Below the pieces are notes generated by a model. That model worked only from the letters and a program-made list of their open reading frames with translations, made no database searches and was not told the DNA's origin. From Carcharhinus longimanus (lineage: Eukaryota), in assembly GCA_030264375.1 (NCBI GenBank), contig JASCQW010000132.1:131801900-131865899 (forward strand): a DNA stretch of 64,000 bases, written 5' to 3'. Shown here one piece after another: positions 11,733 through 61,409 of this stretch (position 1 is the stretch's first letter; each line of letters begins with the position of its first letter). Position numbers and translations under genes: made by a program.

Positions 11733-11985
11733 TGATGAGAGAGAGGAGGAAGATGATGANNNNNNNNNNNNNNNNNNNNNNNNNNNNNNNNNNNNNNNNN
11801 NNNNNNNNNNNNNNNNNNNNNNNNNNNNNNNNNNNNNNNNNNNNNNNNNNNNNNNNNNNAGGAGGAAGATGATGAGAAGAAAGACGACCAAGGTGAAGAT
11901 GGTGAGAATATCTTGTATAGAGAAGGCGACAAGACAGTTGGTCCCTGGAACAAGATAACGCCAGCACCAGCTCCTGTCGTTGTGG
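11733..11985 (+). CDS. CDV3: CDV3 exon 3 (interrupted by a probably false 100-N gap)
   Basis: gacag|...gtg g|gtaag; DEREEEDDEKKDDQGEDGENILYREGDKTVGPWNKITPAPAPVVV with conserved GPWNK; collapsed length 137 nt fits the flanking phases. Confidence 0.92.
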
Positions 11986-12581
11986 GTAAGTGTCAAGATT
12001 GCTTTGGGCAGAGAGAAAACAGATTCAGAAATGCAGAGATTTGCAAAGAACCCCACAATTATTGCAGAATAATATAGTATTAAATACTTTATGGCAGCAA
12101 TTAAGAATTATCTGAAAAGGTACTGTGACATTTGGCGTGCTATGTTAAAATTAGATCAATTTTAAAAAGGCAGTCATTACCCCTGCATGTTTTTGAATGT
12201 TGCATTTTTATACCACAACACTAGAGGGAGAACTTGCAGTTAGCGTCAAGCCTTTAACGTGAGAAGCAGCTCTGCTTTTGTCACTGAATTATCCATTCTT
12301 TTGCAAGCTGATGTCTGAACTTTCTCCTTAACAACAACTACACAGGGAGCAATCATTTTAACGTTTAATGGCAAACCAATGAGTTTGGATGAGATCTAGT
12401 CTTGGAAACCATGACTCTAGGCTCTGTGGAATTCAATGATTAAAATAAAGTATTTTTAATCACCTAATGTGCGATTTGAAACTGAGCCTAGGATTAATAG
12501 TCCCAAAACCTATCAACTGAGCTAGCTGGCCTGTGTTGGAACTCCCTGCACAAGCCTTTCCAACATGTTCCAATATTTTGT

Positions 12582-12936
12582 TTTTATTCATTCATGGGAC
12601 ATGGATATCACCAGCTGGGCTAGCATTAATTGCCCATCCCTAGTTGCCCTTGCAGGCAGTTAATAGTCAACCACATTGCTGTGGCTCTGGAGTCACATGT
12701 TGGCCAGACCAGGTAAGGACGACAGATTTCCTTCCCTAAAGGACGTTGGTGAACCAGATTGGTTTTTCCGACAATCAGCAATGCTTTCATGTTCATCAGT
12801 AGGTTCTTAATTCCAATTAGCTTTAATGAATTCAAATTCCACCATCTTCCGTGGCGGGATTCGAACCCAGGTTCCCAGAACATAAACTGAGTTTCTGGAT
12901 TAATAGCCTAGTAACATCATCAGGTCATCGCCTCCC
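12582..12936 (-). mobile_element. Second tRNA-derived SINE family; copies 13550-13906(-), 25855-26238(-), 47288-47646(+), partial 42330 and 50190
   Basis: B box (ggattcgaaccc on +), shared body, tail atgaatgaataaaa shared with LINE ends. Confidence 0.8.
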
Positions 12937-14097
12937 CATATAAATTGAAAGAAAAATATTGTTCAGGAGTCGAAGCTGCAATGGAGTTAAACTGGCCTGG
13001 AAGCAAAATGTCACGCAGCCACCACTTTGGCGGGAGAATCTATGCACGTGATGTGCAGTTGCAGTGCAGGCTGAATGCGCAAGTGATGTTTTGCTGGCTG
13101 GCAGCAAGAGTTAGTGTTTTAGGTTTGAAGGACTTTTACACTCTATCAGACTGTGAGCTAATTGCCAAAGCAGCACTGTTTAACTGAGACCATGTTTGTA
13201 ACTATGCTAATCCAGGCATGGCTAGCTCAAAGGTTGAAAAGTCATCATGTGGAACACATTAAACAGTGGAATGTGCTCAAAGCGGGCAATTCTAGCCCCA
13301 ACGATCTAAAGAACTGAAAGTTCCAAATTTTCAAACATCAGGAATAGTTTGTGGGCACGTGAAGCAGGAATGTACAAAAGGTATTGGATGTTTTGTCTGG
13401 AAAATACCCCCACCCATATTCTTAGATATTCCTTTTCCATCCTTGAATTTATTTCTCCCAATTTTAGTTGTGCTGCTAATCACTCCCTGAGCAAGAAGAT
13501 AAGAAAAATAATTTGAGGCTTAGTCTTGCTGTTGGGGTTGTCACCCTAATTTTTTTATTCATTTGTGGGACATGGGTGTTGCTGGCTGGCCAGCATTTAT
13601 TGCCCATTCTTTGCCCTTGTTCAGAGGGCAGTTCAGAGTCAACCATATTGCTGTGGCTCTGGAGTCACATTTAGGCCAGATCAGGTAAGGAGGGCAGATT
13701 CCTTTCCCTGAAGGACATCAGCGAATCACGTGGAATTTATTGACAATGGTTTCATGGTCATTATTAAATTCTTGGTTTCAGATTTTTTATAAAAGAATCA
13801 AATTCTGCCATCTGCTATGGAGTGGGATTCGAACACAAGTCCCCAGAACACTAGCTAAGTTTCTGGATTAAAACTCAAGTGATATACCACTATGCCATTA
13901 CCTCCCCAATTTTGCTCTGTCAGGGAAAAGTTCCTGGCTTTCTAATCACAGCCCCAAGACAAGATGATACGCTTGACCTATTGTCAAACCCTGCCTGGAT
14001 CAGTTTGCTGCCTTGGATGATTGATTTGTTTGTGTGGAAAGGTTTGCACTGTTGCAGAAGTTTGCCTACATTTGTCTAACATGAGTGTGACTCCCAG

Positions 14098-21388: not shown

Positions 21389-24301
21389 AAGTATTGAAAG
21401 AGACAGAATTACTTAGTCACTGTTTAAAATTTATTTTGGGAATTTGTGCTAAGATTTTATTTATTATTGAGGATTTCCCTGATTTTATAAATGCTTGTTC
21501 AGCTCTGTTATATCTTGTACATTGTCCTAAAGCTGATGAGCCCTGCTGAATAGCAGTTAACTGATGTTTAGATGTTAAGACTATTCTACACACAAGTATC
21601 TGAATACTGGATTTGTATATACCTTCCACATCTAGGTGCCTGTTAAACTTTGCTGTTTAGTACCTGACTACTAGATTTTGAAAACCCCAATGCAGAATCA
21701 GCTTGATTGTGGAGTGAAATATGTATCAACCTATCGGGTTTTCTTTAAAAAAAATTGTATTTTAAATCATATTCCACCACTAAATTTATTTTTGATCCTA
21801 TTTGCATGATTTACCTTCTATTTAACACTCAGGGCTCATCTTTCAACAATTACTTAATAAGCCTTACTTCTCTCCGACCATAACCTTTTCACACCCTAGA
21901 GCTTTAACTTCTCAGAGCTTATTCTCTTTACACTCACCATCATTCTTTTTGCTAGCTGCTTCTCTGCAGCCCCTCTGCTGTGCGGACGCCCTCTACTGAA
22001 GCACAAACTATATGAACACACCCTAGCCGAGGTCAGACCATTACGTTCAAAAGGCTAGGGTGTTTGATATAGTTTGATTCCCTTAGTTTTCCGCCCTTAA
22101 CCCATTAAGAATTGTCCTGCAATGATTAATGTTCAAATGACTGCTATTGCTTTCAAAGTAGGTAGGAATGGTTCAGTTGTAGTTTTTTTTTTTGCTGCTG
22201 GATTTACTGCCATTTGCCCCCAGCGCTGTTCGAGCTGTGCATCTCCACTATTCAGAAACTTGTGTGTAGAATAGTCTTAGCATCTAAACAAGTAAACTGG
22301 AATTCCGCTTTATACAAGCTCAACTTAAATATGCCCATCTACTGAATAGGAAGTAAGAGCTTATCACTGCAAGGAGGAAGGTTATTTGTCTTTTACATTC
22401 TTTGGGCATTGCAAAGCACATCATGACTAACGAGTTACTTTTGAAGCACTAGTGTAGGCAAACCTGGCTCTGCCAGGTTCCACAAACTAGAGGTGGGTAG
22501 TCTTTATGTGGTGATGGTTGAGGGATAAATGTCGGCCAGGACAATGAAATGTGTTTTCCTTCAGAAAGAAAGTTGCAGCTCATCAGGCCGCAACCTCGAC
22601 TTTAAAACTTCACCCGGCCTTCCTTGGATACAGCCCTGAAAACAGCTTAGATGTACAGGAAACAATTCTTGTTGCACCCCCACAATTACTTTGAAGTTAC
22701 AATATCATTTCTGCTTTAACTGAAGAATAATGGTCCCTGACAACCTTTTCTTGTAGTGAAACATCCCAAATGCATTTGCAAAGCATTAAGTTTTTATTTA
22801 TTAAGTAATCTATTAAAATGGCCATCTATCTGAGAGTTGTAATACATTCCTTGTGGTTCTCTGATCTTGACAGGTCTGTGCTAACCTCCCTTCCCCAGAT
22901 TAAATCCAAGCAATTTTCCGTAACTTGGAGGTTAATTGCAAAACTCTCTACATATCAGTTTTGACACTCTGACTACCAAAGCAATAAAGATTCCAAAGAT
23001 TATTAGCTCCAGAATAAACCGTCTATTCAAAACCCTTTGCCTCACACATGTAAACTGCTGGATTAATCCTAATTTGATGTTTTAAAGTGCTCTCCTGTCT
23101 GCTCAAATGAACTTTGTTGCATTTTAAATGGTGCCCACTATTACATAATTCTATCTTCCTGTAAATGAGTGAGAGAGAAGGAAACCAGTGATTCTGCTCA
23201 GCGACCCTCTAAAGAAGAATGGAGTGTGGTAAATAATCCTTCAGCTCAGAACTTGTTAACTTTTCAATTTTAAAAAAAAAGCATTTCTTTAAGATTTGCA
23301 CATTTCCCACCAGGTTCAGAAAAGTTTATTTATTATTAGTCACAAGGCTTACATTAACACTGCACTGAAATTACTGTGAAATTCCCCTAGTCACCACACT
23401 CTAGTGCCTGTTCGGGTCAGTACACTGAACCAGCACACCTTTCAGACTGTGGGAGGAAACCAGAGCACCTTGAGGAAACACACACATACGGAGAATGTGC
23501 AGATGCCACACAGTGAACCAAGCTGGGAATTGAACCCAGGTGCCTGGTGCTGTGATGCAGCAGTGCTAAGCAGTATGCTGCCCCTCCTTTGACTCGAGAG
23601 AACCAGGCATCACAATCACATACAGGTAAAGCAAACTACCATATTTGTCACTATGAAGTTTAAACTGTCAAACATTTGCTCTGAAGAGCAGCCAGGACTA
23701 GAGTGCAAGAAGTAGCAATGGAGACAGGTATTCACAATACCTGCAATAAATGCCAGAATTTTGGCACATAGCCATTATTGGGGCTGATCTTTTTTTGTAT
23801 ACGGATACAACACTGCTTCCCATGTGGACAGTCTAGAAATAAAAGAGCATAATTTGCTGGAGGTTTAAGAACTAGAACAATATCATCTGTATCTTGCTCA
23901 GGAGTCAGCCTTTGAGGTTGGGTTTCTGCATTTCAATGGAACAGTAGAATCAAATAGGATGTTCTGATTCAGAATAAGTGATAACTATTCCTTCTTTACT
24001 GGTTCAGATGCCAATGTGTATTTTTTTTTGCAAACTTACTCTTGTCTTTAAAGTTTAGAGTTGAAATCTCCCCGCAGGCACATGCTGCCGGGGAACTGGC
24101 AATAGTTTTACCCAGTTGCTTTTTTGATTGACTTGCCTGTTACAGAAAAGGACTTTTTGTAGGTTCTACTTTTGGTTCATATGGAGAACGAAGGAGCAAA
24201 TCAATTTGTAAGTGGACATCAGGTAACTGGAATGCGTTCAAAATTATTCTATCATGGCCCATCCTTCACAATATTGCTAAACCTGTGGGATGTAAACATG
24301 C

Positions 24302-24322: not shown

Positions 24323-25638
24323 GGAGTTTGCACGTTTTCCCTGTGTCTGCGTGATTCCTCTGGGTGCTCTGGTTTTTTTCCCGTAACCCAAAAGCTGTGC
24401 AGGTCAGGTGGATTGCTCATGCTCAATTGATCCTTAGCATCAGGGGGAATTAGTGAGGGAGATACATGGGATTGCTGGGATAGGGCCTGGGTGGGATTGT
24501 TGTCAGTACAGGCTTAATGGGCCAAATGGCCTCTTTCTGCAGTCTAGGGATTCTGTGCTTGTCAAATCCTGAACTCTACAGCAAAGGAGACTTGCGCTCC
24601 TGTCACCAGAGTCTACTCACTGCTGACTCCACCAAGACCAATCTCAGTCTGAATTCAAACTAACCTCTTGAGTTTTATACGAATGCTACTGCTACTGTCT
24701 CAATGCACTTTTTGTTATGTGATTAATAAACAGGAGAGACCAATTTTGTGACCTGACAAGTAATCTGTGTATAAATTGGACTGATATTTGTCAGTCCTAT
24801 CGCTTATGTAGCACCTGTGTGAAACATGTTGGGTTTTGGGAGTGGGGGAAAAGTCAAAACTGTAGCTACCTAAATTTCAACTTATCTAAAGCTATCTTGT
24901 TGCAAAGCATTTGTGAACTGTATGACACAATAAAATAAATGTCTTTCAGTGTCCTGCTTGCTTATAAACATCAAACTCACCTGGAACATAATAGCTTAGA
25001 CAATATTATTCAGAACAGAATGAACAAGATGTATAAACAGAAGTGTCAGAGTCCGTTTGCCATGTAAGATTTAACAAAGCCTGGTCAGTNNNNNNNNNNN
25101 NNNNNNNNNNNNNNNNNNNNNNNNNNNNNNNNNNNNNNNNNNNNNNNNNNNNNNNNNNNNNNNNNNNNNNNNNNNNNNNNNNNNNNNNNNNNNNNNNNNN
25201 NNNNNNNNNNNNNNNNNNNNNNNNNNNNNNNNNNNNNNNNNNNNNNNNNNNNNNNNNNNNNNNNNNNNNNNNNNNNNNNNNNNNNNNNNNNNNNNNNNNN
25301 NNNNNNNNNNNNNNNNNNNNNNNNNNNNNNNNNNNNNNNNNNNNNNNNNNNNNNNNNNNNNNNNNNNNNNNNNNNNNNNNNNNNNNNNNNNNNNNNNNNN
25401 NNNNNNNNNNNNNNNNNNNNNNNNNNNNNNNNNNNNNNNNNNNNNNNNNNNNNNNNNNNNNNNNNNNNNNNNNNNNNNNNNNNNNNNNNNNNNNNNNNNN
25501 NNNNNNNNNNNNNNNNNNNNNNNNNNNNNNNNNNNNNNNNNNNNNNNNNNNNNNNNNNNNNNNNNNNNNNNNNNNNNNNNNNNNNNNNNNNNNNNNNNNN
25601 NNNNNNNNNNNNNNNNNNNNNNNNNNNNNNNNNNNNNN

Positions 25639-25694: not shown

Positions 25695-26987
25695 GTTGAC
25701 AAGGATCTCAAAACCCCAGAACTATTTGCTGCTAACAACAGCAGCGCATTAAAGATCCAGTGAAGTATAAAGATAGCTGCCCTTAAAATGATGCAAGTGG
25801 CTTTTATTGTTCATTTCTTCTCAGAATAGAATATCGTCATATGCTTCAAGTGAATTTATTCATTCATTCGTGGGACATGGACGTCATTGGCTAGGCCAGC
25901 ATTTATTGCCCATTCCTGGTTGCCCTTGAACTGAGTGGCTTGCTTGGCCTTTTCAGAGGGCAAGTTGAGAGTCACCCACATTGCTGTGGCTCTGGAGTCA
26001 CATGTAGGCCAGACTGGGTAACAACAGCAGATTCCCTTCCCTAAAGGACATTAATGAACCAGATGGGTTTTTACAACAATGGTTTCACGGTCAGCAGTAG
26101 ATTCTTAATTCCAGATTTTTTTATTGAACACAGATTCCACCATCTGCTGTTGCAGGATTCAAACCCAAGTCACCAGAACGTGAGCTGATTTTCTGCATTA
26201 ATAATCCAGTGATAATACCATGAGGCCATCGCCTCTCCCTAGTTCGGTGTTGGAACTCCCAGGAAAATTTAGGCAATTTTTGAACAGTTTGCTCCACTCT
26301 GCAATGAGATGCCATGAAGCAATCAATTTGCAAAGGAGATACTTTTTGAGGCTTTTTAACTTCCTTTTAGAGTAATGAAAGAAAATATAAAATTATTATT
26401 TGTATCTTTAAACTCATCCATTTTAATTTACTGTTTCTTATTTAAGATTCTCTCCTGATTCCTCCTCCTCGCAGAATTTGATTGTATTTTTAGATTATGA
26501 GCGATCAGTCATCCGTTGTTTTTGATTTCCCCTATTGCACACACTTCATGTTACGCATTGTCCCTGTTCCAGCTTTTCGGGGTGATTTAATTTGCTTTGA
26601 TGACTCAATAAGTTGGTATTTGTCATGGTTTGTTTTCACTTACTTGCAGGCACTGTTAGACATTAGAAGGTGCATTCGGTTCCAGTCAGCTATTACATTC
26701 CACAGACGCTCAGTGTTGGAAATCTGATGCGAGCATATTCAAACTGCTACTATATGTAAGAGCAGTGAAAGCACTTAATGCATTCAGGCATTGAATTATT
26801 TTACATGCAGCATAAATCATTAATAAAATTCCATGATAATGAAACTTCCAGCATCTAGTCTGCAATGTGATTATTTTCTGGAATCTCAGTTTTTTGGGAA
26901 AGTGAAACGGAATTGGAAACTAACAAAAGAAGAATTAAAAAACTAAACCTTGACAGTGAAAAAAGTCAGGGTAGCTTAAACATTGAA

Positions 26988-27297
26988 CAGCACAGTGATT
27001 CGCACTGCTTTCTCACAGTACCAGGGATCAGAGTTCAATTCCAGCCTCGGGTCACTGTCTGTGTAGAGTTTGCACATTCTCCCTGTGTCTGCATGGGTTT
27101 CCTCTGGGTACTCCAGTTTCCTCCCTCACTCCAAATATGTGCAGGTTAGGTTGATTGGACATGTTAAATTGTCCCTCAGTGTCAGGGGGAGTGGCAGGAT
27201 AAATACATGGGATTATGGGAATAGGGCCTGAGAGGGATTGTTTTCAGTGCAGACTTAATGGGCCAAATAGCCTCCTTCTGCACTGTAGGATTCTATG
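26988..27297 (+). mobile_element. HE1-like V-SINE with CR1-type tail; copies at 3646(-), 17550, 24315, 36069, 37178, 37427, 41036(-), 44132(-), 45000(-), 53162, 56518, 56668(-), 57897, 58838(-), 59612
   Basis: A/B-box tRNA head (ggttcaattcc), V core, tail ..ctgcactgtagg(g)attctatg. Confidence 0.85.
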
Positions 27298-27860
27298 AAA
27301 CAAAAACAGAAAACGCCAGAGAAATTCAGCAGGTCTGAGAGCGTCTGTGGAGAGAGAATAGAGCCAACGTTGAGTCTGGATGATCATTTGTCAGAGCAGA
27401 GATGAATGGAAATGCTCAGTTTTCTGCTAACTGTCCATCTTCCTCAACAATTTGCTTTTGCATAGTCCTTTCCACATATTAAACATCCATGAACCTCCTC
27501 CTCCTACTTATTGTTTGTAGGTGCTGGTAAGGGCTGGTTCCTCATTATAACAAGCTTGTGAAATATGCGACAGAAGACTACAAATCGAGAAACCCACACA
27601 GCGGAGTCAAAAGGTCTCGGCTGTGGAAGCCGTGATTGAGGGTCCAGAGTGCTTGTTCAATGATGGTTCTGATCTTGCTGTATTCCCGCTGTGCAAGGAT
27701 TGTTAACGGGAGTCATGAGCCATGTGTGTTCCAGCTTTAACTGGTAACAGCTTTTAATACAATGAATGGAATCACAGGAATGGTCAGTGGAACAAAATCA
27801 GCAACTTTTTAACCAAAAGACAGCCTCTAACTGGGAAAGCTGATTGGGATATAGAGTAGC

Positions 27861-30930: not shown

Positions 30931-32996
30931 ATTGACCAGAACATGATACGCAGAACAGCAGATTAGAGCAGCATGAGATTGAATGATTCGACAAGGTTGG
31001 GGAACGCGAGAAATTGATTTCCAATACTTACTGCCACATTCAATCTGTAAGACACAGGCAAAGCATCTGGACAAGCCAGCTATCCGAGGACAGAGAGATG
31101 GAAAACTTGTAACTTTTTTTTGATCTTCTCCTTTTATCTTTGTGGACCCAGAATGTACACAATGCCCAGAAGAGTGAAACATCAACTCCGAAACAGAAAT
31201 TAGAAGGAGTAGGCCGTTTGGCCTTTTGAGCCTACTCCGCCATTCATTTTGACCATGGCTAACCATCAAATTCAATATCTTGATCTCGCCTTCCCCCCAT
31301 ATCCCTTCCTCCCTGTAGCCCCAATAGAAACATATGCTTGTGATGTACTGCCTGAAAGTTATAGTTTCAGCTCAGTTTATCACTGCAATAGCTCATTTCA
31401 TTTGGGAGAGAAGCTAAAGCCCAAGGCATCTGCAGAGAATCACTGGATACGGGATGGAGAGTGAAGCTATCAGCATGAACTGAAAGCTTTTGAGTGGCTT
31501 TCAAAAGGGAATTAGATGCCTACTAGAAAGTGAAGATCTGCAGGGCCATGGTGAAAGTGCAAGGAATTGACTTTGTGGCTATCTTTTTCAAAGAGTCAAC
31601 TCAGGCATGATGGGCCAAATGGCCTCTTTCATTTGGTGTTTATGTTCCAAATGAGTTTCCTGCCACTCCTCCCCATCTCACTCTATCAGCAAATCCTTTC
31701 TTCCTCATGAATCTTTCTAGCTTCCTCTTAAATGCATCTAATCTATGTATTCACCCCAACTACTATTCTTTGGGTAGAGAATTTTTGCTGAATTCCTTAT
31801 TTGATTAAATGGGCAACTACCATATATTTATGCTCCTTACTTTCCTTTGGTATTGGCTAAAACCCAGTTTGCCGTTGGTTGCAACTTTTAAAATTGTACT
31901 TCCGATTCCAGAGTCCTAACTGAACATCTAAATTGCCCCCAACCCCAAAAGAACACTGCTTCTCACCTTCTCTAAGCCTAAGTAACTACCCTCGAGTCCC
32001 TACTCTGTAGCCAGTTTGCAATATATTCTGCTCATCACCGTGCCCCCCCCCCCACACCCCGATTTCACATTTCATATTAGTAATANNNNNNNNNNNNNNN
32101 NNNNNNNNNNNNNCTCCATGACCCATATCTAAACTTTTGTTAAGTCTTCAAATAATTCAGTAATGTTAACCAAAGCAGGAGCTTTCTTTTCAAATCTATG
32201 CTGGCTACTCTTCATTATGAAACTCTTGTGGCTCTTCTGCCTCTGAGCCAGAAGCCTGCATGTTCAACGTTCTGCTCCAGGGCTTGTCAGCTGTGGACAG
32301 AGTGGTCCAAACAGACTGTGACCAGTCTGCTTTCCCACTATTCCCGAAGGGGATAGACTGCATGCAAAGATAAGAAATGAACTATTGTGTAATTCTATGA
32401 TTGCACAGTATGGAATTTGGCTGGAACAGTTTTTGTGAATAAAGCTACTCCTGGATGACTCGAAGATGCATTTGAGTTATTTCCGAATGAACTGCCACGT
32501 GGGCATACAAACTTTTAAATTTTTGGAAAATAAGTCACAAAATAGTATGCTTGAAACAACTTGAAACCAAACTAAAATGGATTAGATGAAAAATCAAGTG
32601 AAACCTCCTTCTAGTAATTGAAGACAACAAACAGAACTAACTATGCGATTTTGCTATGACAGACATAAAAACGACAGAGCTAAAAAATATCACTGAAGTT
32701 GCTAAAAATTGTCCACTAAAATAGAAATTTTAGAAAATAAAGCAGCTGGTCTGTCAGGATTTGTAAAGAGCAAAGTTAGGTTAAAGCTTTGGCTGATAGG
32801 TCAAACTTTGACAAAGAGTCTACATCCAAAGCATTAGACAGTTCTGGATCTGAAGGTTGTCCTAATTGTTTATACATCCACTAATAGGTTAATAATATAA
32901 AATATTTTTGTTGCTGAACTCCCAAGTCCAGTACAGCTATTAGTCTAAGCATCTATATCACATAACTTCACAGAAGATTTAGAATGCAGGACAAAC

Positions 32997-34963: not shown

Positions 34964-36708
34964 CTACAGAGGCAAAGCAGATGTTAATTTAGTCAAATAT
35001 TACGTATGTTCTGAATTAATTCCCTTAAAAAAGTGGAGCATTTCTCTTTCTGCAAGTTTATTTGAAGTCATTATTGCTTCAAAGGTTTATATTGAAAGCT
35101 TGGAAATGATTTTTAACAATAAATGCAGCAATATTTTACCTTTGCTGTACATTGTTTTGTGTCAACGGAACAAAATGCTGATCTTCTGGGCTAATTCTAT
35201 ATCCTTCCATCCTTTTTTCACTGCAGTAGCTAGGTTTCCCTTCCGCAACGCTTGGAAAAGCAACACTTTGCGATAATTCAATCTTGTGGACTCCGTCACT
35301 TTAGATATTAGTTTAGTTTATTTATTAGTGTCATAAGTAGGCTTACATTAACACTGCAGTGAAGTTAGTGAAAATTCCCTAGTTGCCATACTCCAGTGTC
35401 TGTTCGGGTACACTGAGGGAGAATTTAGCGTGGCCAATGTACCTAACCAGCATGTCTTTCAGACTATGGGAGGAAACGGAGCACCTGGACAAAACCCACG
35501 CAGACACAGGGGGAACATGCAAGCTCCATACAGACAGTCACCCAAGCCAGGAATCAAACCAGGGTCCCTGGTGCTGACAGGCAGCAGTGCTATCCACTGT
35601 ACTGTGCCACCATGTCTTTACCAGATGTCACTAAGATCAAAAGGTGCAAGGTGTTTCTTTTCAAGTTGCTACATTGGGAGAATAAAACCTCCTCATCTGG
35701 TAGACTAAGACATGTGTCTTCAGGGAAGAGTGAGAGTTTAAGAATCACTGTTTGCAAATTTAGTATGGAAATGTTAAAATCGTTTTGGCTGAATCTTCCC
35801 TAGTACACGGAATAACTTTACGTCCAGAAAAGTTATGCGTCCTTTCAATGAGACTCTTAATGTATACCTGTTAAGTACTACTAAGAGATGGAGAGGGAAT
35901 GTGACTATCCAGACTTGAAACGTTGGCTCTGTTCTCTCCATGGGTGCTGTCAGGCCTGCTGGAATTTTCCAGCATTTTTTGTTTTTGTTCTTGTTCCATT
36001 TAAGATAGATCCATCTTCACTTGAAGCCTGGTTTTCAACCTTATTTCAATTTCTGCTCATGGTAGCTTTAGATGTGTGGGTTAGTTTGATTGGCCGTAGT
36101 AAGTTAACCTTAGTGATTGGCAGGTGAATATGTGGGGTTACAGGAATAGGGCCTGGGTGGGATTGTGGTGCACAGATTTGATTGGCGGAATGGCCTCCTA
36201 TTGCACTGTAGGATTATATGTTATGTTACATGCAGCAGATTATCATTAGAACTCTGACTAACAAACACCTATCAGCTGAGTATCACGTGCCCCAATCAGG
36301 AGCCACACTCCACAATTTCAGCACGTTCTGAATCCAAACCAACAGTTCAGTGCCAGATCATGAGATTACAATGCTCGGTGTTGGCTCCCATGGCAGTATT
36401 GAAAAAGCAAGGACCTCTCCCAGTGTAAACAGCCAACATTTGTCCCTCAAACACTACAAAAACAGATTCAACAGCAACTTTACCTTCATTGTGGTTTCTT
36501 GCACTTTGCAGTGCATAAAGTTTTGCTGCGTTTGCTTAAAAATCATAACTGCACTTCAAAAAGTGATTCATTGCACGAGTGCTTTATATGGGTGCAAGTG
36601 TATTCTCTTTCAAAAGGCAAATTTCTTCTTGCATATGTTTTGATATTGTGCTTACACTCGTCCACATTCACTTCCCGCTTTGTTGGTACTTCTTATCTTC
36701 AAAGAGTT

Positions 36709-36999
36709 TTTTTTGTTTTTATTCCGATTCAATCAAATCAAGTCCAATTCAGAGTCTCAACAAGTTGAGACATTCCTGATCCAAGCTGACAAGACAGGGC
36801 TCTCACCTCCTGTCTTGGGTTTGATCAAGCTGACTGGAGATTAGGCATTGCTACCCTCCAAGGCTTGATTTCATTTGCATCGTAGTCAAAAGGCCGAGAT
36901 GCCGCTTTTAAACATTGCTTCAAATAAAGCCAAAATGTAACCTACTGGACTTCAACCAAGTACAGCATGTTGATACTACACTTGATCTTAGCCAAAAGG
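36709..36999 (-). mobile_element. U2 snRNA-headed retroposon with poly(A) tail and TSD
   Basis: 28/28 match to U2 nt 13-40 at 36972-36999; second U2-like segment 36879-36899; AATAAA plus A-tail; flanking direct repeat AAAGAGTT at 36701 and 37000. Confidence 0.85.
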
Positions 37000-37882
37000 A
37001 AAGAGTTGCTTTAATTAGTATTCACTGATAAGGAAAATTTCAACAGCTCCCTTGCCAAGATGTACAGAAACCCTGGAAATCCTAACCCCCACAAAGTGAC
37101 GCTCTATAATATCAACACAGCCCCATGTGTCTGGAACTGGTAATGCCAGCTGCTGTGGCTGTCCATCTACCAAGGTAATGTGTGGAGTTTGCACATTCTC
37201 TCCATGTCTGTACTGGTTTCCTCTGGGTGCACCGGTTTCCTTCCACAGTCCAAAGATGCGCAGGTTAGGTGCACTGGACATGCTAAATTGCCCCTTAGTG
37301 TCCCGGGATGCATAGATTAGAGGGATTAGCAGGGTAAATATATGGAGTCACAGGGATAAGTCCTGGGTAGGATTGTTGTCAGTGCAGACTCGATGGGCCA
37401 AATAGCCTTCCTCAGAAAAAGAAAAGGGCACATGGTGGTACAATGCTAGCGCTGCTGCCTCACAGCACCAGGGCCTGAGGTTCAATTCAGCCTCAAGTCA
37501 CTGTCCATATGGAGTTTGCACTTTCTCTCCATGTCTACATGGGTACTCCTGTTTCCTCCCACAGTCCAAAGATGTGCAGGTTAGGATGATTGGGCACTCT
37601 AAATTGACTCTTGTGTCAGGGGATTAGCAGGGTAAATGCATGGGGTTATGGGAATAGGGCCTGGGTGGGATTATGGTTGGTACAGGCTTGATGGGCCAAA
37701 TGGTGTCCTCCATACTATAGGGATTCTATGATTCTATAACATCCATGTTGGCCTCAACCATAGTGATAGTCCACCAGATTTTCTTGCACTCAGTGCACCA
37801 GTGATCCAGTAAGCCCAGGCAAAGGAACAGGCAAAGCTACCTAGATAACAGCATCAACGAACATAGTTCATCATGTCAGTAC

Positions 37883-38023: not shown

Positions 38024-39744
38024 CTGTGAAAGGAAGGGATTATAGCGTTCACAGTCAATATTCTTCTTTTGAAGACCTGCACCATTATATGGTGTGATGC
38101 TCTGAGTCCATCTTACAATCTGGCTATCACATGCATTAATCACAGTGAGGTATGAGTAACTATAAATCAAAGCAGGAAGCTATTTTAACTGCACACTCTC
38201 AGCATTACTTGTCTCTTTTCCAAGATTTTGTCTTGGTCCAAGTCTCAGTTTATCAAACTGCTTGGACTGGGGTTTCTGTTTCTGTGATTAATAAAAAAGC
38301 AATCATGTAAATTTTCAGAGTTGCATTGTAATCGAGTGAAATCTCGTATCTCACTGCAATTATAAAATAAATGTTGCTTACATAGAAAGCTTTCTCTGTG
38401 TGAATGCACCACGATAACTCCAAAGATAATGGTGTAACAGTATTATTGTACTATTATTAATTCTAACCATAATAATAATATGGTTATTACCACTAACCAT
38501 ATTAGTGCTAATATTTTAGCACTAATATTAACACCAAGCATAATAGTGTACCACTAACACTGTGACAGAAATACTGTATAATTAAATTGGCTGTAATTCT
38601 GTGTACATGTATACAATGGTGATTGATCCGTCAGAGATTAGCGGAAGACAATATGACCAATGTCAAGGCAGAATTGATATTGAGAAGGAGGAAAAGGGAC
38701 AACAAACTAGTTATACCCCATGATTCCCTCACCCAGAGAACATTCTGTGCCCTTTCTACCCACAGTGCTTCTTCTGATTAGTGTTCAACATGAGGAGTAC
38801 TGATTCATCAGCTGAGGGAGCACGGTGGTTGGTAAGCAGCAATAGCTTTCCTTGCCCATGTTTGAACTGATGCCAAGAGTCTCCATAGGGTCTGAAGTCA
38901 ACGTTGAGGACTCCCAGGGCAACACTCTCCCGACCCTATACTACTGTACCTCCACTTCTAGTGGCTATGTCCTGCCCTGAGACAGGACATATCCAGAGAT
39001 GGCATGGGAAAATGAGGAAGCTGAGGAGTGTTTTAGGCCAGTGTGTTTGAACAAGAGGTTAAATATTTAAAAGTAAAGAAAGGGCTAGCAGTGTAGCCTG
39101 AAAGGCCAAGGGACTTGGAGATGAAAACAATGCCATAACATCAGTAGCTTCAAGGGGTGAAAGGACAAGGAGGTGATAGGAAAAGATGGTTGGGAAGATG
39201 GGGAAGCTAGGCTCCTGTACAATAACAATTTCACAGAGGAGGGGAAATTGTACAGAAAGAGAGGGAACATAGTAGGAAAGAGGTCTCAACATCCTAATTT
39301 AATATACAACAATATATCTTACAGGGACATGCACGGTGGTTAGCACTGTTGCTTCACAGCGCCAGAGATACAGGTTCAATTCCTGGCATGAGTCACTGTC
39401 TGTGCGGGAGTCTGCACATTCTCCCTGTGTCTGTGTGGGTTTCCTCCAGATGCTCCAGTTTCCCCTCAGTCTGAAAGACGTGTTGGTTAGGTGGATTGGT
39501 CATGCTAAATTCTCCGTGTACCCAAAAAGGCACCGGAGTGTGGCGACTAGGGTATTTTCACAGTAAGTTCATTGCACTGTTAATGTAAGCCTAATTTGTT
39601 TCACTAATAAATAAAATTACTGAATTTAAATTGGGTTTATGCAGGAACACAAAACCGAATTCATTTTGTGTCCTACAAATGCAGTTTACATCTGCATGGG
39701 ACAAAAGCAACTTTCAGTTGAAATAATTTGCTGGAATACATAAC

Positions 39745-39908: not shown

Positions 39909-42565
39909 CTAAAAAAAAAATCAAATTCCACATTTACTCAAAGAATGGTAAAATCACTAATTCTGAACATACATATATGGCAAACAATGATTAGATTGGT
40001 TCAGCTTTTTACATCACAGAATTTCAATTACAACACAAATATTTTGCCTTCATTGACGTTCCTGTTTCAAAGTTTAATCAAAGAACAAAGAAAATTGCAG
40101 CACAGGAACAGGCCCTTCACCCCTCCAAGCCTGTAGTGACCCAACTGAATTAAAGCCCCCTACCCTTCCAAAGAACACATCCCTCTGTCCCTATCCCATT
40201 CATGTTATTTGTCAAGATGGCTCTTAAAAGTCACCATCATATCTGCTTTTATTACCTTCCCCAGCAGTGAGTTCCAGGCACCCACCATCCTGTGTAAAAA
40301 AAAAACTTGCCTTGTACATCTCCTTCAAATCTTACCCTTCACACCTTAAACCTATACCCCCTAGTAACTGACTAAAACTGAGTGGAGGATTGACAGGTGT
40401 TCACTTCTCAACTCCAGTCCAACCATGCTATTGCTGATGGCCCAGACGTCCTCCTCTCCCAAAAGTTCCAGCACCCACTCCTCAAAAGGGGGTGACAACT
40501 CAGAAGTCAGTCTCACCACCCCGTCTTTACCTTCTCCTGAATCAGTCTGATCTTTTATAAAGCTGGTCAGTAAAATTTCTGTTATTGTAAAATATGTTTT
40601 AAATACCAATTTGGTTAGTCTATTCTCAACTCCACATCCATGTTGACAATTTGCATGGGCTTCCAACCCTTAACTCTGAGATAAATATTCCATCGGATTT
40701 ACACAACTGTTATTTCAGATTTTAATCTGAATAAACAGATGCTTTAAACTAATTTGGTGTTTATGAGTCCAAGAAATACTAACGGTTAACCCAAATTGCA
40801 AGGGCACATTTACTCCCAGTTTGTCTACGGTCACGTTAATCTTTCTATCTGAAAGATCTTTGAACTCCATTTGGTCGGAGATTGTAACATAGCCGTAATT
40901 TTAGTTGCCACTGATCGCCTTTTTCTAATTCTAATCAATCACCTCAAACAGGAGTTTATCAAGAATTGCTAACTCAAATTTATTCAACTTTCTTCCTTCA
41001 TAAATGAAGCTACGCTGGATATAAAAGAACTTTTCCATAGAACCCTACAGTGCAGAAAAAGGCTCTTCAGCCCATCAAGTCTGCACCAAACAATTCCACC
41101 CAGGCCCTACCCCCATATCCCTTCATAGTCTACCCACTAATCCCTCTACCCTACGCAGCCCTAAACACTAAGGGGCAATTTCTTGGCACGACCAATCAAC
41201 CCAACCCGCACATCTTTGGACTGTGGGAGAAAACCGGAGTACCCAGAGGAAACCCACACAGACACAAGGTGAATGTGCAAAATCCACACAGACAGTGACC
41301 CGAGCCGGGAATCGAACCCAGGACCCCAGAGCTGTGAAGCAGCAGTGCTAACCACTGTGCTACCGTGCTGCCCAATGCGCTCAAATTTCCTCTGGTGGTT
41401 CTCCTGGACTCTCTTTGTGCAAGGTTCCCATCGACCCTGACATTTCACAGGCAGCCTTATGAAGAGATGGAACATCTATTCATCCCTGTAAAGCCAATGG
41501 CATAAAGAGATGGCCCCTCCCTACATTGTGAACTTTGCTTTGTTGTATAAGCCAGGATTGTAAAGGAGAGGCAGCCAATATCAAGTGTTACATGAATCCT
41601 GGTGAGTGGAAAAGGGCCCCACTGAGGGAGTAGGGCAGGAAATAATGCAGATCTCCAAAATTATGCGCTTTTAAAAAAAATATTCATCGCACAGGTTATA
41701 GAGGGGGACCAGGACACTGGCTGGGCAGTCTATCCAACCCAACCCCTGATAGCCAGGCATTGGATTTTCTGTCTATTTACGAGCAGTGTAGGGATATATG
41801 TGCCCAATGATCCGATGTAAATGAATTGCACTTATGTTGACCCTACAAACTCAGGTAAGGTCATACCCAAAGATCTTTGAGTATGATTCCAAAGATTATA
41901 GCAGTTGGATCTTGGAGACTATTTAATTAAACAAACAGTATTTTGTTGCCTCTGTTATGATTTAATGCATAAATACTAGATCCATTATTTTACCACAGCA
42001 ACCAGAATGGTAGTAAATCATAACAGCAAGATCCCAGTTTGCATCCCTGGTTTGGGCTAATCTCAGACAAGAAACTACAATGGGTTACAGAAGTCCTGCC
42101 ACCTGTTCATGGCCAAAATTCAGCATCTCATATCAGAAAGTGCTCAAGTCTGTTAAGGATTTATCTCGGTTGTGATGTTTTCCAGTATCACTCATTGCCA
42201 CAATAGGAAGAATGACCATGCTGGAGCAGTATTCATGCACTAGTCTGTAACTTCATAGCACTCCTTGTAGTGGAGACAAATATCAATCAGAACAAAAAGA
42301 ACAAGATGCTTTTGATGGCAGAGAATTAGTTTGCCATCCAGAGACTCAGGGTTATGTTCTGGGATGCGGGTTCCAATCCCTCTATGCTAGATGGCAAAGT
42401 TTGAATTAAAAAAAAGTCTGGAACTAAAAGCCAAATGTTGACCGTGAAACCCTTATCTGTTCTGTCCTACATGTGATTCTAGATCTACAGCAATATTGTT
42501 GACTCTTAAATGCTCTCAAATGGACAAGCAAGCCATTCAGTTCAAGGGCAATTAGGAATAGGCAA

Positions 42566-42890
42566 TAAGAACATAAGAAATAGGAGCAGGAGTAGGCCAT
42601 CTAGCCCTTCGAGCCTGCCCCGCCATTCAATGAGATCATGGNNNNNNNNNNNNNNNNNNNNNNNNNNNNNNNNNNNNNNNNNNNNNNNNNNNNNNNNNNN
42701 NNNNNNNNNNNNNNNNNNNNNNNNNNNNNNNNNNNNNNNNNCATTTTTCCAACTACAGACGTTAAACTAACCGGCCTATAATTCCCTGCCTTTTGCCTGC
42801 TACCTTTTTTAAACAGCGACGTAACATTAGCCGTTTTCCAATCTTCTGGCACTTCCCCGGAATCCAGCGAAGTTTGGTAAATAATCACTA
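42566..42890 (-). mobile_element. Young CR1 LINE collapsed across a gap
   Basis: SLDSGEVPEDWKTANVTSLFKKGSRQKAGNYRPVSLTSVVGK on one side, intact CR1 tail on the other. Confidence 0.9.
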
Positions 42891-43329
42891 ACGTGCGTGT
42901 AAGAAATTAGAAAGTTATCATGTGGTGCCTAATTGGAATAAACTGGCAGGTAGACTAGAGGAATAGCCGTCAGTGTTGAAGGCAGTAGAGGAGCCAAAGA
43001 GAAGGAGAGAATGCAGCTTATAACAGGTCAGAATCTGGATGAAAAGGATTTCAACAGGACAAGTGTGAAAGCTGTGGCAGTGAATGTGTAACAATGATTC
43101 ATTCGAGAATCTAGGAATGAAAGGGTCAGTTGGTGTAAAATAGCCGAGAGGGGAAATCAAGTAGGATTTTAAGGAAGTTGATAATGGAAGTTTTGAAACA
43201 AGTCGGGACAGCACCAACAGGTAAAGAGGGAGGCGAGAAAGGAATATTCTCATAGAATTAGCGAAGAGGGAGAACTTGGCTAAGCAGGAGCTGGGACAAG
43301 AGGGCATTAAGAAGTCAGTTAATAGTGAC

Positions 43330-44591: not shown

Positions 44592-45770
44592 CTGAAAGTT
44601 ATAAGCAAAACCATCCGGTTCAGTTATTTAGATAACATAAACAGAAATACAGCAAGACATACTTCAGTTCTTCATTGTTGGGGGATTTTCAAATCTTTTG
44701 AGATGTCGGATATCACGTGGCTTAGGCTCAACTTCTGATTTCAAGCTTGGGTAAACTTGCAGTTATTCAGTTTTGCACAGTATGCAGAATATACAGTCCA
44801 GACAATGAGCTGCTCAACCTTACTCTATGCCTCCTGCACCAGTCAAGGAATTTTAAAGGATATGCAAGGCAGGAAAGGAGAAGTACCATGCAGAACATTT
44901 TTTTTCCTTTTTGAGGGGAGATACTTCAGATATACCAGTCATCATCGTTCAAACATGGGAAAGTTTCGAGTGCCACTGTGACAAAGCGCACTCACTCAAG
45001 AATCACAGAACCCCTACAGTGCAGAAGGAGACCATTTGGCCCATCAAGCCTGCACTGATAACAGTCCATCCCAGGCCCTATCCCTGTAACCCCATCTATT
45101 TACCCTGCCAGTCCCCCTGACACTAGGGGGCAACTTAGCATGGTCAATCAAGCTAATCCGCAAATCTTTGGACTGTGGGAGGAAACCCACGCAGACACCG
45201 GGGGAGCGTGCAAACTCCACAAAGACAATCACCCGCAGTCATATTTGAACCTGGGTCCTTGGTGCTGTGAGGCAGCAGTGCTAACCACTGTGCTGCCCAC
45301 TATAAGTTATACCTTCTTTGGAGGAAGGAGAGGGGTGGATAATTAAATGTGAACTTGCAGATATCCTTTTGAAGACTAAAGGTTAAAAAGCAATGAAGAT
45401 GAACAGAAATGCAAAAAAACCATAACAAATCTTTCGCCACACCAAAGCAAAATAAAGACATGGTTTACAAAAACGTCCTGCGAAATGGTATAGCAGAGCA
45501 CTTATAATGATACTTTAAATCTATTGAACAAATGCAACATCAAGGATAAATGAAAGAGGAACTTCAACAAACTTTAAAACTAAAATTACTTAAAGTTGGG
45601 TTTAGATTAAAAAATATTGGGAAGCAGAAACATTTTTGCAGTCAGGTGAGTTACATGAATCTCAGCCCCTGAGTTTCCCCATTACTCACCCCAGAGCCCT
45701 ACCCACACCTCAACATAACACACTCATACAGTTTCCTATACTATTACAATAAATCCCATGTTTTCCAGAC

Positions 45771-46871: not shown

Positions 46872-48115
46872 CTAAAAACAGCATCTTTGTAAAATTAAGC
46901 TGGAAGTACAAATGCAAGGTAGAAGATTCATGCTTTTACAACTACATTTTTGGCTCTGTTTGAGTTATTGATACTCAATATGACCTTAGTGCTTAACTAC
47001 AGTACTCAGATGAAAAAATATTCTTTTTAGTTTTGTTAGTGGAATCCAAACAAAACTAAAAATATTTTTCATCCGCTTACTGTAGTTAAAAAAAAGTTGC
47101 TGAATTTTCTTAATTAATCTTTCAGGAATCTGTAGAAAAATTTCTACACAAAACATTTTATCTCTATTAATGCTTTATAATGATCTCTTTTAATGCAAGC
47201 ACCGAATCATCAGTTTTAATATTGCGCTGAATTCTCTCAGCCAAGGAATTAAAAACTAGAATCCAATCCTATCCAATCCAATCCTATTAGGGTAGGCAAT
47301 GGCTTAGCGGTGTTATCTCTAGACTATTAATCCAGAAACTCAGTTAATGTTCTGGGGACCAGGGTTCAAATCCCACCAAGGCAGGTGGTGAAATCTGAGT
47401 TTAATAATAAATATCTGGAATTAAGAATCTATTGATGACCATGAAACCATTATCGACTGTTGGAAAAACCCCATCCAGTTCACCAATGTCCTTTACAGAA
47501 GGAAATCTGCCATCCTTACTTGATCTGGCCTACATGTGACACAGCAATGTGGTTCACTCTCAGCTGCTCTCCAAGAACAACTAGGGATGGGCAATAAATG
47601 CTGGCCAGCCAGCGATGCCCATGTCCCATGAATGAATACAAAAAAAATCCATCCGAGTTACAAATACATGATTGATCAAACAGGGACTATTTATAAAGCT
47701 GGATTTAATGATGTTTAAAAATACAATGAAAGAGAACAAATGAAAATTAACTGACAGCATCCCAGACTTGAACATTAGCTCTATTCTCTCTCCACAGATG
47801 TTGTCACACCTGCTGAGATCTTTCAGCATTTTCTGATTTGATTTCAGATTCCAGCATCCGCAGTATCTTTCTTTTATGAAAATCAATTCTCAGTGGCCAG
47901 GCAAAAAGTACCAAATGAACAAGATGCAGATTGATCCCACCTCACATTACAGTTTGCAAAACGGTAGGTCTGAATTTCCCTGATAAGGTTATCAAAATTA
48001 TGTTAAAAATGTTCTAAATTTTAATTTTATCATTTAAAAAAGGTTAATGCTATACGACTTAAATAATTTCAATAAAATAGAAACAGCTATAAAGTCAACA
48101 AAACCCGTAGAGCAC

Positions 48116-49724: not shown

Positions 49725-50182
49725 TGTAGCCAAACGGGCCATCTAAAATGGCATTTTGTAAAGCACTCTGGGACAAGTGGGCAAGAAACTAAATCAACAG
49801 GCTGCAGTTTAAAGACAGAGACAAACAGATGGCAACCCTGATGAGTGAATACACAGGATATGGGCCATCTCCAGGACGAAAGAGACTTTCTGGTCACACT
49901 GGGTTGTGTGCCAGACGTAAAGGCACCGTGAATCCTTATTTAGGAGGAAGGTATNNNNNNNNNNNNNNNNNNNNNNNNNNNNNNNNNNNNNNNNNNNNNN
50001 NNNNNNNNNNNNNNNNNNNNNNNNNNNNNNNNNNNNNNNNNNNNNNNNNNNNNNCTTATTGTTGGTCGGGTGGGTGATTATTGATTGTGTGGGTTTAAAT
50101 AAATATTGTTTGTACTAATAAGACGTCTACTTGTAGTTATTTGTCCACTGTATAAGGGTTAAAACAGACTGATTTTACAACA
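49725..50182 (+). mobile_element. Probable LTR element (solo or collapsed) spanning a gap
   Basis: TG...CA termini, AATAAA near the 3' end, imperfect TSD TGTG/CGTG. Confidence 0.5.
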
Positions 50183-56350: not shown

Positions 56351-57446
56351 GTAGTCAGAGATAAAGCTAAAAATGTTCCTATTTTTTTTCTCGGAAACAC
56401 AGCACAAGATTAAGGAGAATTGTTTATAATGAACCTTACTACACTTAATTCTGCAGTGCAGTTTACCAATTAAATCAAATTGTGTTCAATGTATGAACAT
56501 TTTTTCTCCCTCTCATTGGGTGACACGATGATTAGCACCACTACCCCACAGTGCCAGGGACCCAGGTTCGATTTCAGCCAAAGGTCACTGTCTTAGTGGA
56601 GTTTGCACCTTTTCCCTGTGTCCACATAGGATTCCTCCAATAGTCCAAAGATGTGCACGTTAGGTGGATTCATAGAATCCCTACAGTATAGAAACAGACC
56701 ATTTGGCCCATCACGTCAGCACCAACTGGGTAAGTGTCTTACCCAGGCCCTATCCCAGTAAACCCACATATTTATCCCACTAATCGCCTTAACCTACAGA
56801 CACTAAGGAGCAATTTAGCATGGCCAATCCACCTAACCTCCGCATCTTTGGACAGTGGGAGGAAACCAGAGCACCCAGAGGAAACTCAGAGAGACATGGA
56901 GAGAACATGCAAGCTCCATACAGACAGTGACCCAAGGTCAGAATTGAACCAAGGTCCTTGATACTGTGAAGCAGCAGCGCTAACTGTGCCAACATGCTAT
57001 CCTTTGGTAAATTGACCCTTAGTGTCAGGGGAATTAGCAGGGGAGATATGTGGTAATATGGAAATAGGGCCTGGGTGGGATTGTTGTAGGCACTGGCTCA
57101 ATGGGCCAAATGGCCTCTCTCTGCACTGTGGGATTGTATGATTTCTATGATTCTATTATTTCTCCCCAACCTCCTCACGAAAGCCAGCAACTCAACCTGG
57201 TATAGATCATGAACTCTGGCTGTCCTGTTCTTTGTTTAACCAAGCGACCTTGTTTCAAGTGGGAGCCTGGATGGTGGAGGTTGGCAAGATGCTCAGTCTT
57301 GATTATCAGAGCCAAAATCAAATATATCCTTCCATGGCACTCAGGCACATGAACCTATTCAGCAGAGAGTCAATATAATACTGTCGGGACTGGGAACCAT
57401 GACTGTTTTTAATGCCCCTGATTCTGGGAAGGGGCATTAAATTGAT

Positions 57447-58304: not shown

Positions 58305-59172
58305 AAGCTTTGGATGGGAGGCCCTTTTGGAGAGTCAGTGCAGACTCGATGGGCCGAATGGCCTCTTTGCACTGTAGGGATTCTATGCAGGTTCCAGATT
58401 GAAATGATGCCAGACTGGGAGTAAACGCAGCTCAGTGAGGTCAGGAATGTCATCTGCTTCCATTTCCCAGCTCCAGCTGCTCCCGGTTCCCCCAGGGCCC
58501 CCACTTCCCACGTTGACCTAGAACTTGCCTCCTTCCGGATCTTTCGTAATCTTCCCCTGACGGGGCTGGAGCTCCGGATGGTCCAGCACTGCTTCAGATA
58601 AAGGGTTAGGACTCTAACCTGCAATGTGGCTGTACAGAGGGCAGAGAGTACATCGCCTACCCCACCCCTCAAAGCTTTGGGATAAATAGCCATCATTAAC
58701 ATGTTGGTGTGAGGTAGGTGGTAATGCGTAATGTCTGGAGGAGGTGGAGGGGAGTGAGTCCCTGGTAAAATGAGGGCACGGTGAATGCACAATGACCGTC
58801 CGTTTTACAGAGATGACCTTACCTGCAATTCCATATCCATAGAATCCCTACAGTGCAGAGTGAGGCCATTCGGTCCATTGAGTCTGCACTGGCCACAATC
58901 CCACCCAGGCCCTATTCCCATAACCCCACATATTTACCCTGCTAACCCCGCCTGTCACTAAGGGGCAATTTAGCATGGCCAATCCACCTAACCTGCACAT
59001 CTTTGGACACTAAGGGACCATTTAGCATGGCCAATCCACCTAACCTGCACATCTTTGGACGCTAAGGGACAANNNNNNNNNNNNNNNNNNNNNNNNNNNN
59101 NNNNNNNNNNNNNNNNNNNNNNNNNNNNNNNNNNNNNNNNNNNNNNNNNNNNNNNNNNNNNNNNNNNNNNNN

Positions 59173-60518: not shown

Positions 60519-61409
60519 CTGTAGGGAAAAGAATATGATTGAAAAATATCAGCTTAGGAGAGATATCTGGGAATGGTTACAATAGAATGCAACATCAAAG
60601 TTTTTAGGTAACATTAACCGCAATGGCAAAACTATTTTATAAACATTCAGGGATCAGTAAGCCTTTGAGTTACCCAATTTTAATATTAAAGTCAAGTTTT
60701 GTTACCATCTCATTTTTCTGCCAGTGGTCAGCGCCCACTATAACATTACATAATTACTTATTCAGGTTTAGAGACAAAAGATTAATGATTTAGAAAGAAT
60801 CCTACATCCTATGTATTATTAAAAATATTTAATTAGAGAATATAGCTTGGTGACTGCCATTTTCACTGACTGAAACCAATCGTTGTTATTAATCTTTTCA
60901 GTAATAACCTGATTGCAGCATGTTATTCTATCAATGTGGAGTTGAGAGTTCTCCAGGTGCCCTGGCAAACATTCCTCTCTTAAGCAACACTACTAAAACA
61001 GATTATCTGGCCATTTCTGTGCGTTGTTTGTGGAAATTTATCTATCAACATGATCTTAAACAGTGGAATAGGTAGGACTAGGAGGAAAAGGGCAAAGAAT
61101 ATAAGTGGTGGATCAGGGACAGAATTAAAAAGGAGAGGAGCTCAGTGGAAGCTGTTTATCAGGGGCTCAAAGTGCATTCAAAAATAGTTCAATTATGTAC
61201 ATGTTGTAAAACGTTAACAGTAAGTCAACATATAAGAAGCAAAACATTACAGATGCTGGAAACCTGAAATGGAAAATGTTAGAAATAATGAACAGAATAG
61301 GTAATAACATCAGAGGGGTAGAATTTAGTAATTAAGCTCTCAGATATGGAATCTTTCTCAGAAGTGAAGCATTTGGAAAGATCTAGGGCCAGATCACCCA
61401 TGCAATTTC

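Follow-up and report, generated by a model that had tools for sequence, protein, structure and literature searches.

A candidate SINEU-like, U2-headed retroposon with a predicted self-masking arm in a TOPBP1 intron of the shark Carcharhinus longimanus

A 64,000-nucleotide (nt) stretch of the Carcharhinus longimanus genome (contig JASCQW010000132.1, positions 131,801,900 to 131,865,899 of the forward strand; hereafter the window) carries, within an intron of TOPBP1, a short insert that opens with an exact copy of part of U2 small nuclear RNA (snRNA). The insert occupies 36999-36709 on the minus strand (291 nt), is bracketed by an 8-bp target-site duplication (TSD), and is a genuine retroposed element. 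It is best read as a U2-headed retroposon resembling SINEU, a group of snRNA-headed short interspersed elements (SINEs), in a new vertebrate group. Directly behind the U2 head lies an arm complementary to it, which is predicted to mask the branch-point-binding GUAGUA of that head. The parts of the insert and its host intron are as follows, in the 5' to 3' direction of the insert, with z scores taken against shuffled sequences.

37000-37007, minus strand: 5' copy of the TSD, 8 bp, AAAGAGTT
36972-36999, minus strand: head 1, an exact copy of U2 nt 13-40 with GUAGUA, which recognizes the branch point, and the region that pairs with U6
36941-36971, minus strand: anti-U2 arm, a 4-nt loop after which 36968-36941 pairs with 36999-36973
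36903-36940, minus strand: AT-rich spacer with a weak hairpin (z -1.46), in which the 8-nt TTTTGGCT matches U2 nt 15-22
36867-36902, minus strand: head 2, a diverged U2 5' segment, 21/24 to nt 4-27 with a gapped continuation to nt 40
36823-36869, minus strand: hairpin unit 1, with an ATCAAG...CTTGAT outer stem and a GCAA tetraloop (z -2.98; 3 of 200 shuffles as stable)
36778-36825, minus strand: hairpin unit 2, resembling unit 1, with a perfect 9-bp stem at 36790-36817 (z -1.16)
36723-36780, minus strand: 3' region with a perfect 8-bp stem at 36754-36771 and short TTGAT-like repeats (z -1.75)
36709-36723, minus strand: AATAAA and a short A-rich tail
36701-36708, minus strand: 3' copy of the TSD, 8 bp, AAAGAGTT
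34964-37879, minus strand: host TOPBP1 intron, phase 0, limits approximate, with the insert in sense

The borders of the insert are those of a retroposition product. A count of identical 8-mers spaced 289-309 nt apart gives 86 of 125,088 window positions, and the requirement for an A-rich run before the second copy leaves 3 of 125,088, among which the U2-headed insert should itself be counted. The flanks at 37000-37023 and 36701-36724 are identical at 18 of 24 positions, so the TSD may exceed 8 bp; at five of the six differences the 3' copy has an A. It could accordingly be drawn as a 13-bp duplication (37000-37012, with two mismatches in the other copy) lying behind a TT/AAAG, L1-like nick site. 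The A tail proposed in the first-pass annotation of this DNA stands as far as the AATAAA/A end is concerned, although the tail is short, and part of it could be derived from the target or result from A-rich priming. Beyond the 3' TSD copy the sequence is unique intron and not U2 nt 39 onward, and the flanks match no repeat of the window except for one 19-nt hit. The insert is a short non-coding unit (<500 bp) with only short stop-free frames, the longest of which (about 44 codons, antisense strand) has no credible protein relative.

Head 1 agrees with U2 nt 13-40 at 28 of 28 positions when compared by eye with human U2, the reference line of which was taken from the supplement of PMC4640811, and with the Rfam consensus, in keeping with the first description of the insert as a 291-bp minus-strand element opening on a perfect copy of these nucleotides. 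The Rfam U2 model matches the insert with E=2.6e-4 and 31.9 bits, under its gathering score of 46, with sequence identity confined to the first ~40 model positions. Nothing in the whole window reaches the Rfam gathering level, and the scan of the insert gave no U1 segment. The second U2 5' segment, previously put at 19/21 over nt 7-27, holds up and extends by eye to 21/24 over nt 4-27 (36902-36879); aligned with gaps against head 1 it reaches nt 40 with 22 of 29 columns identical, and none of 8,318 control 45-mers equals its score. Both U2 segments stop at nt 38-40. The ATC at U2 nt 38-40 of head 1 may belong to the body, the units of which likewise open with ATCAA. Two heads of such different age, one at 28/28 and the other at 22/29 columns, would imply at least two rounds of U2 capture and hence a lineage. 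The TTTTGGCT match in the spacer is a possible, not an established, third and decayed head.

The ATGCAAAT octamer that had been pointed out next to head 2 is present at 36880-36873, in the transcribed part, where it shares positions with the gapped extension of head 2 over U2 nt 26-33, and on sequence grounds it is most simply read as diverged U2. A role as a promoter element found no support and was ruled out, since the octamer occurs six times on the minus strand of the window and lies inside the transcribed part.

The sequence following head 1 had been taken as unrelated, non-U2 material, which proved not to be the case, as it is complementary to the head over 24 bp, six of which are G-U pairs. 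The predicted pair probabilities are at least 0.77 for 23 of the 24 listed pairs and mostly above 0.9, with GUAGUA paired at ≥0.93. For the complete insert RNA the predicted folding energy is -89.9 kcal/mol (z -3.98), a stability that none of 200 shuffles reaches, and most of this signal comes from the 5' end. The hairpin of head and arm is stable on the strand of the insert (z -4.5, repeat run z -4.3; 0 of 300 shuffles as stable) and not on the opposite strand (z -0.5, repeat run z -0.4; 81 of 300), and because its stability is strand-specific it is regarded as a feature of the RNA and not as a palindrome in the DNA. In trans, none of 12,504 control 37-mers pairs with the head as well as the arm does; in cis, 6 of 9,612 do. 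Relative to the exact complement of the head, the arm carries nine substitutions and one insertion. Six of the substitutions (four A>G, two C>T) are transitions that preserve pairing as G-U; the other three are transversions, which together with the inserted base form small loops. Head 1 has no change in 28 nt. Since all six transitions of the arm keep pairing while the head is unchanged, head 1 and arm had different histories. Pairing of the arm with head 2 was also considered and dropped, as 6,396 of 12,527 controls pair equally well. At the ends of the arm, the four bases past head 1 (36971-36968) read by eye as U2 nt 41-44 in reverse complement. The two bases past the arm (36940-36939) could pair as G-U with U2 G12/G11, which are absent from the TOPBP1-intron copy. 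The arm may thus span U2 nt 11-44, interrupted by a gap of 2 nt, a weak suggestion from base complementarity.

The body is less distinctive. Unit 1 and unit 2 resemble each other in an alignment equalled by 3 of 1,000 shuffles, and the two perfect hairpins of the first-pass annotation (36790-36817 and 36754-36771) are present, whereas the units that hold them are not stabler than shuffles (z -1.2 and -1.75). Folding of the body other than that of unit 1 is not clearly beyond chance. Treating the 3' region as a third unit was not significant, with 612 of 1,000 and 182 of 1,000 shuffles matching units 1 and 2 equally well. A tail held in common with a ~360-bp repeat family of the window was likewise dropped, as the likeness is confined to the last ~20 nt. 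Rfam searches of the body and arm returned chance-level matches only (E 2.6 to 9.7, mir-728 included). The insert contains no match to an RNA polymerase III (Pol III) A box, one loose match to a B box, three T4 runs, and no detectable tRNA gene.

The nearest known system is SINEU. Here and below, statements taken from cited papers reflect the portions of those papers that were available. SINEU-1 of crocodilians grew by the addition of U1 and U2 heads ahead of older heads (PMC4494074); the existence of crocodilian snRNA-headed SINEs, invoked in the first-pass annotation, is on record. The insert shares with SINEU-1 a size under 500 bp, the absence of coding sequence, a U2 head, newer heads before older ones, a non-U2 3' body, poly(A), a TSD (~10 bp in SINEU-1), internal oligo-T and the lack of a recognizable promoter (PMC4494074). 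The two differ in host, SINEU having been detected only in crocodilians (PMC4494074), and in that the available text of PMC4494074 makes no mention of a head-complementary arm, although its figures and supplement may show one. The insert also has no U1 segment by Rfam, and the likeness concerns layout, not compared 3' bodies. Keno-related Tx1-Mar long interspersed elements (LINEs) of crocodilians, some with U1 or U2 heads, are the proposed mobilizers of SINEU; how SINEU is transcribed is described as still open (PMC4494074).

Keno (Tx1 clade) and Utopia, which carries a restriction-like endonuclease (RLE), insert before U2 nt 39 (PMC4640811, PMC6136364), in agreement with the earlier statement that U2 is targeted near this junction, and the U2/non-U2 junction of the insert, placed at nt 38-40 with U2 identity running to nt 40, would fall at their insertion site. 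In contrast to these elements, the insert has no open reading frame (no reverse transcriptase (RT), apurinic endonuclease or RLE), has its own TSD in unique intron sequence, and is not followed on its 3' side by U2 nt 39 onward. By eye its 3' end is unlike the Utopia 3' ends given in the available part of PMC4640811, save for an AATAAA-like motif. Tx1-11_Crp is similar in having a U2-derived 5' end on a Keno-related retroelement, but is autonomous and crocodilian and prefers Mariner-N4 targets (PMC4494074), and SINEU too is described as preferring Mariner-N4-like DNA; the flanks of the insert match no window repeat apart from the 19-nt hit. Chimeras of snRNAs and LINEs and tailless U2 retropseudogenes resemble it in joining a 3'-truncated snRNA piece between TSDs (PMC4476161, PMC5322556); the U2/L1 chimera is however inverted by twin priming (PMC4476161), whereas the insert has U2 in the sense of the A tail, two heads and a complementary arm. 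Twin priming is for this reason rejected for the insert. UCON3, which the first-pass annotation gave as a U2-inserted chimaera family, is in fact classed as SINE2/tRNA (PMC5753468) and is a body domain in common with the chimaera SINE UCON3_CM (PMC7245038). The likeness goes no further than UCON3_CM being a SINE known from chimaera, as these elements are tRNA-type and not associated with U2 in the available text, and the insert has neither a tRNA gene nor an A box. The accompanying name "Uno" could not be confirmed; it turns up in two papers of the literature searched but is absent from the available portions of both papers on U2 retroelements.

The explanation that we favor, with confidence evenly balanced against doubt, is that the insert is a dispersed, 5'-truncated copy of a non-autonomous, LINE-mobilized retroposon lineage similar to SINEU-1, with a master in a U2 gene, copied off target by a LINE. 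Its older U2-headed core consists of head 2, the hairpin units and the AATAAA/A tail, and a newer 5' module, consisting of the intact U2 head, the complementary arm and the spacer, is placed ahead of that core. A master copy would reside in a U2 gene, at the position used by Keno and Utopia (U2 nt 38-40), and RNA polymerase II would transcribe it from the external U2 promoter, which would keep head 1 identical to U2. In the transcript the arm would fold over the U2 leader and hide the U6-pairing and branch-point-binding sequences; with its leader masked, the chimeric RNA would therefore neither be handled as U2 snRNA nor compete with it. A poly(A)-priming, TSD-making LINE of the Tx1/L1 type, possibly related to Keno, would then reverse-transcribe the RNA, and an off-target insertion in the TOPBP1 intron would have lost U2 nt 1-12. 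The resulting copy, which has no promoter of its own, is probably inert. The first-pass interpretation as a U2-headed retroposon stands for a retroposed, U2-headed and A-tailed insert in a shark gene, although this copy is not inside U2. That the insert further represents an independently evolved shark family of snRNA-headed elements, with an arm antisense to U2 nt 11/13-39 that RNA-level selection preserves through changes tolerated as G-U, and that either disarms the leader of a transcript from a parasitized U2 gene or binds mature U2 and steers the RT onto it, is a tentative and rather unlikely proposal.

Several observations weigh against this explanation. No second copy was found in the window by BLAST and motif search, whereas other repeat families there reach at least four copies, and indirect searches for further copies were empty, though weak. 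Neither a master copy, nor a U2 promoter, nor a partner LINE was seen in the window. Head 1 ends at nt 40, two bases beyond the reported cut before nt 39, and the insertion site bears no likeness to the U2 target. The head-arm hairpin is a post hoc discovery. At the DNA level the arm has only modest similarity to the reverse complement of the head, with an alignment that 202 of 12,504 controls equal; in a cruder test of the inner 15 nt of the arm alone, 37 of 6,262 controls did at least as well; and the p value of ~0.03 for the G-U count is partly circular, since pairing defines the alignment. The body alone is only weakly structured in sense (z -1.8) and more strongly structured in antisense (z -2.9).

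A second possibility, which we consider unlikely on balance, is a guided template jump, in which the arm pairs in trans with mature U2 and a LINE RT jumps at about nt 40 and copies toward the U2 5' end. The RNA would then begin at the arm, every insertion would acquire a new U2 head and no master in a U2 gene would be required. The arm begins where the head ends, and the head is free of mutations while the arm is diverged, as such a jump would have it. The insertion lies 21 nt past a TACTAAY motif (one of five on the strand), where a U2 small nuclear ribonucleoprotein could sit on the nascent RNA. Residues with 2'-O-methylation stall reverse transcriptases. In human U2, the tandem G11/G12 that immediately precede the start of the head carry 2'-O-methyl groups, as does the residue at which the head stops, Cm40 (PMC7960923), conservation of these sites in shark being assumed; eight 2'-O-methyl sites are however listed in U2 nt 1-40, so that an end adjacent to one is not rare (PMC7960923). 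Heads of SINEU-2 were added repeatedly with end points varying by up to 22 nt (PMC4494074), a variability of junctions that one copy cannot show. Same-orientation switch chimeras in a survey of mammals are mostly of U6 or U6atac, with the U2/L1 case inverted and no same-sense U2 switch in the available text (PMC4476161), and the promoter of an RNA that begins with the arm stays unexplained.

We are equally doubtful that the insert belongs to a repeat already catalogued, either a SINEU-type family in Repbase or Dfam or a U2-headed Tx1/Keno LINE with its two ends joined, a reading that overlaps with both the U2-gene master and the template jump. U2-headed Tx1 LINEs are known (Tx1-11_Crp, PMC4494074), Keno is widespread in animals (PMC4494074, PMC4640811), and shark genomes have already been repeat-annotated. 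Against this, Kojima 2015 detected no SINEU beyond crocodilians (PMC4494074, available text), and no shark snRNA-headed SINE appeared in the literature searched. That search, outside of which lie most subscription journals, Repbase Reports and the SINEU figures and supplement, also gave no retroposon with a U2-complementary arm and no earlier description of a self-masking one. In the available portions of PMC4758252, PMC5786205 and PMC5381603 the mentions of SINEU trace only to Kojima 2015, and that of PMC5499810, on chimaera and shark SINEs, nowhere mentions snRNA.

Less probable than either of these is a one-off chimera, in which a single LINE event joined a piece of U2 to an unrelated polyadenylated RNA holding an old U2 fragment, and the hairpin is either fortuitous or what remains of a snap-back product after decay. 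Truncated retrocopies and chimeras are known to arise from U2 (PMC4494074, PMC5322556, PMC4476161), and both the single copy in the window and the modest DNA-level similarity of the arm fit such an origin. It requires, however, two independent U2 captures with the same end position. The arms of a snap-back product would also age equally, in conflict with 0 changes in the 28 nt of the head against nine substitutions and one insertion in the arm, and the hairpin is strand-specific. A decayed U2 gene or variant U2 snRNA is highly improbable: Rfam does align 36819-37010 to all 192 U2 model positions (RF00004), with stem-loop IV of the model falling on hairpin unit 1 and the Sm site on a U-rich stretch, but the 31.9 bits fall below the gathering score, identity is found only in the head, the part lacking head 1 gives no U2 match at E up to 10, and the TSD and A tail indicate retroposition.

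As to copy number, we infer family status from the anatomy of the insert alone, with a single copy in the 64-kb window. The insert works like SINEU-1 but is not filed as a SINEU member, since SINEU is defined by many copies of one unit and the 64 kb hold a single copy. A pattern scan of bacterial and archaeal contigs and blastn searches of plasmids and phages gave 0 matches, in collections that are prokaryotic and thus silent on sharks. The 44-codon antisense frame, one of 15 frames listed, had two hits among 1.84 billion representatives, both to proteins of >1,100 aa (one at 29% identity, the other without a scored stretch) that were judged unrelated; no relatives at near or longer lengths were found by this route, which has low power.

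The host intron lies between TOPBP1 exons 38026-37880 and 34963-34868. In a translated exon search shark TOPBP1 was the top match, and three shark TOPBP1 proteins each align in 14 stretches on the minus strand, that of Mustelus asterias being the best of the three in most stretches, with 80-98% identity. This exon mapping confirms that the insert is in sense orientation within the TOPBP1 pre-mRNA. A TACTAAT consensus branch point, one of five TACTAAY motifs on the minus strand of the window, stands at 37020-37014 (minus strand), 21 nt upstream of head 1, and the TSD together with head 1 provides a run of 12 pyrimidines followed by an AAG acceptor, the last base of which is 36987. The sole AGGT[AG]AG donor of the host intron is within the insert. 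Branch point, acceptor and donor outline a predicted 180-nt, phase-0 cryptic exon at 36986-36807 (minus strand) with a stop at codon 15, which from these motifs would be a possible poison exon in TOPBP1. The predicted hairpin of head 1 would hide part of the cryptic acceptor.

Elsewhere in the window, a ~360-bp dispersed repeat family is found at 12575-12937, 13548-13907, 25853-26241 and 47290-47648, with fragments at ~2694, 7767 and 50925; its copies are 72-79% identical and end in TGAA repeats and AATAAA-like A-rich tails. The commonest repeat is a ~300-bp SINE-like family, ~70-84% identical, at 26988-27298, 37431-37735, 41033-41369, 45003-45295 and 56667-56998, with many fragments (one at 37179-37408), which is possibly, we presume, the HE1-type tRNA SINE of sharks. 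A set with a related head lies at 4588-4858, 23322-23572, 35316-35600 and 39333-39615. Stop-free frames at 61368-61823 (plus strand) and 42601-42906 (minus strand) look by eye like decayed LINE reverse-transcriptase fragments, and an acidic open reading frame piece at ~11860-12077 (plus strand) appears to resemble CDV3, the neighbor of TOPBP1 in other vertebrates. The seven assembly gaps (3811-3910, 11760-11859, 25090-25638, 32086-32113, 42642-42741, 49955-50054 and 59073-59172) total 1,077 N, and none is within 4 kb of the insert. Across the first of them, 3765-3810 is duplicated at 3911-3956.

Should the insert be single-copy, it would be a curious retro-chimera of little general weight. If it belongs to a family, the arm across copies predicts covariation with U2 and a junction at nt 38-40 that is either fixed or variable, as well as either a master in a U2 gene or 5' ends that pile up at U2 modification sites. 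As snRNA-headed SINEs have so far been described from crocodilians only, within the available text of PMC4494074, a shark snRNA-headed SINE would mean either a second origin of this design or a much greater age. A selected arm, if true, would provide a mechanism for SINEU transcription and for the repeated addition of U2 heads, and the insert RNA would be a naturally occurring antisense ligand for the part of U2 that binds the branch point.

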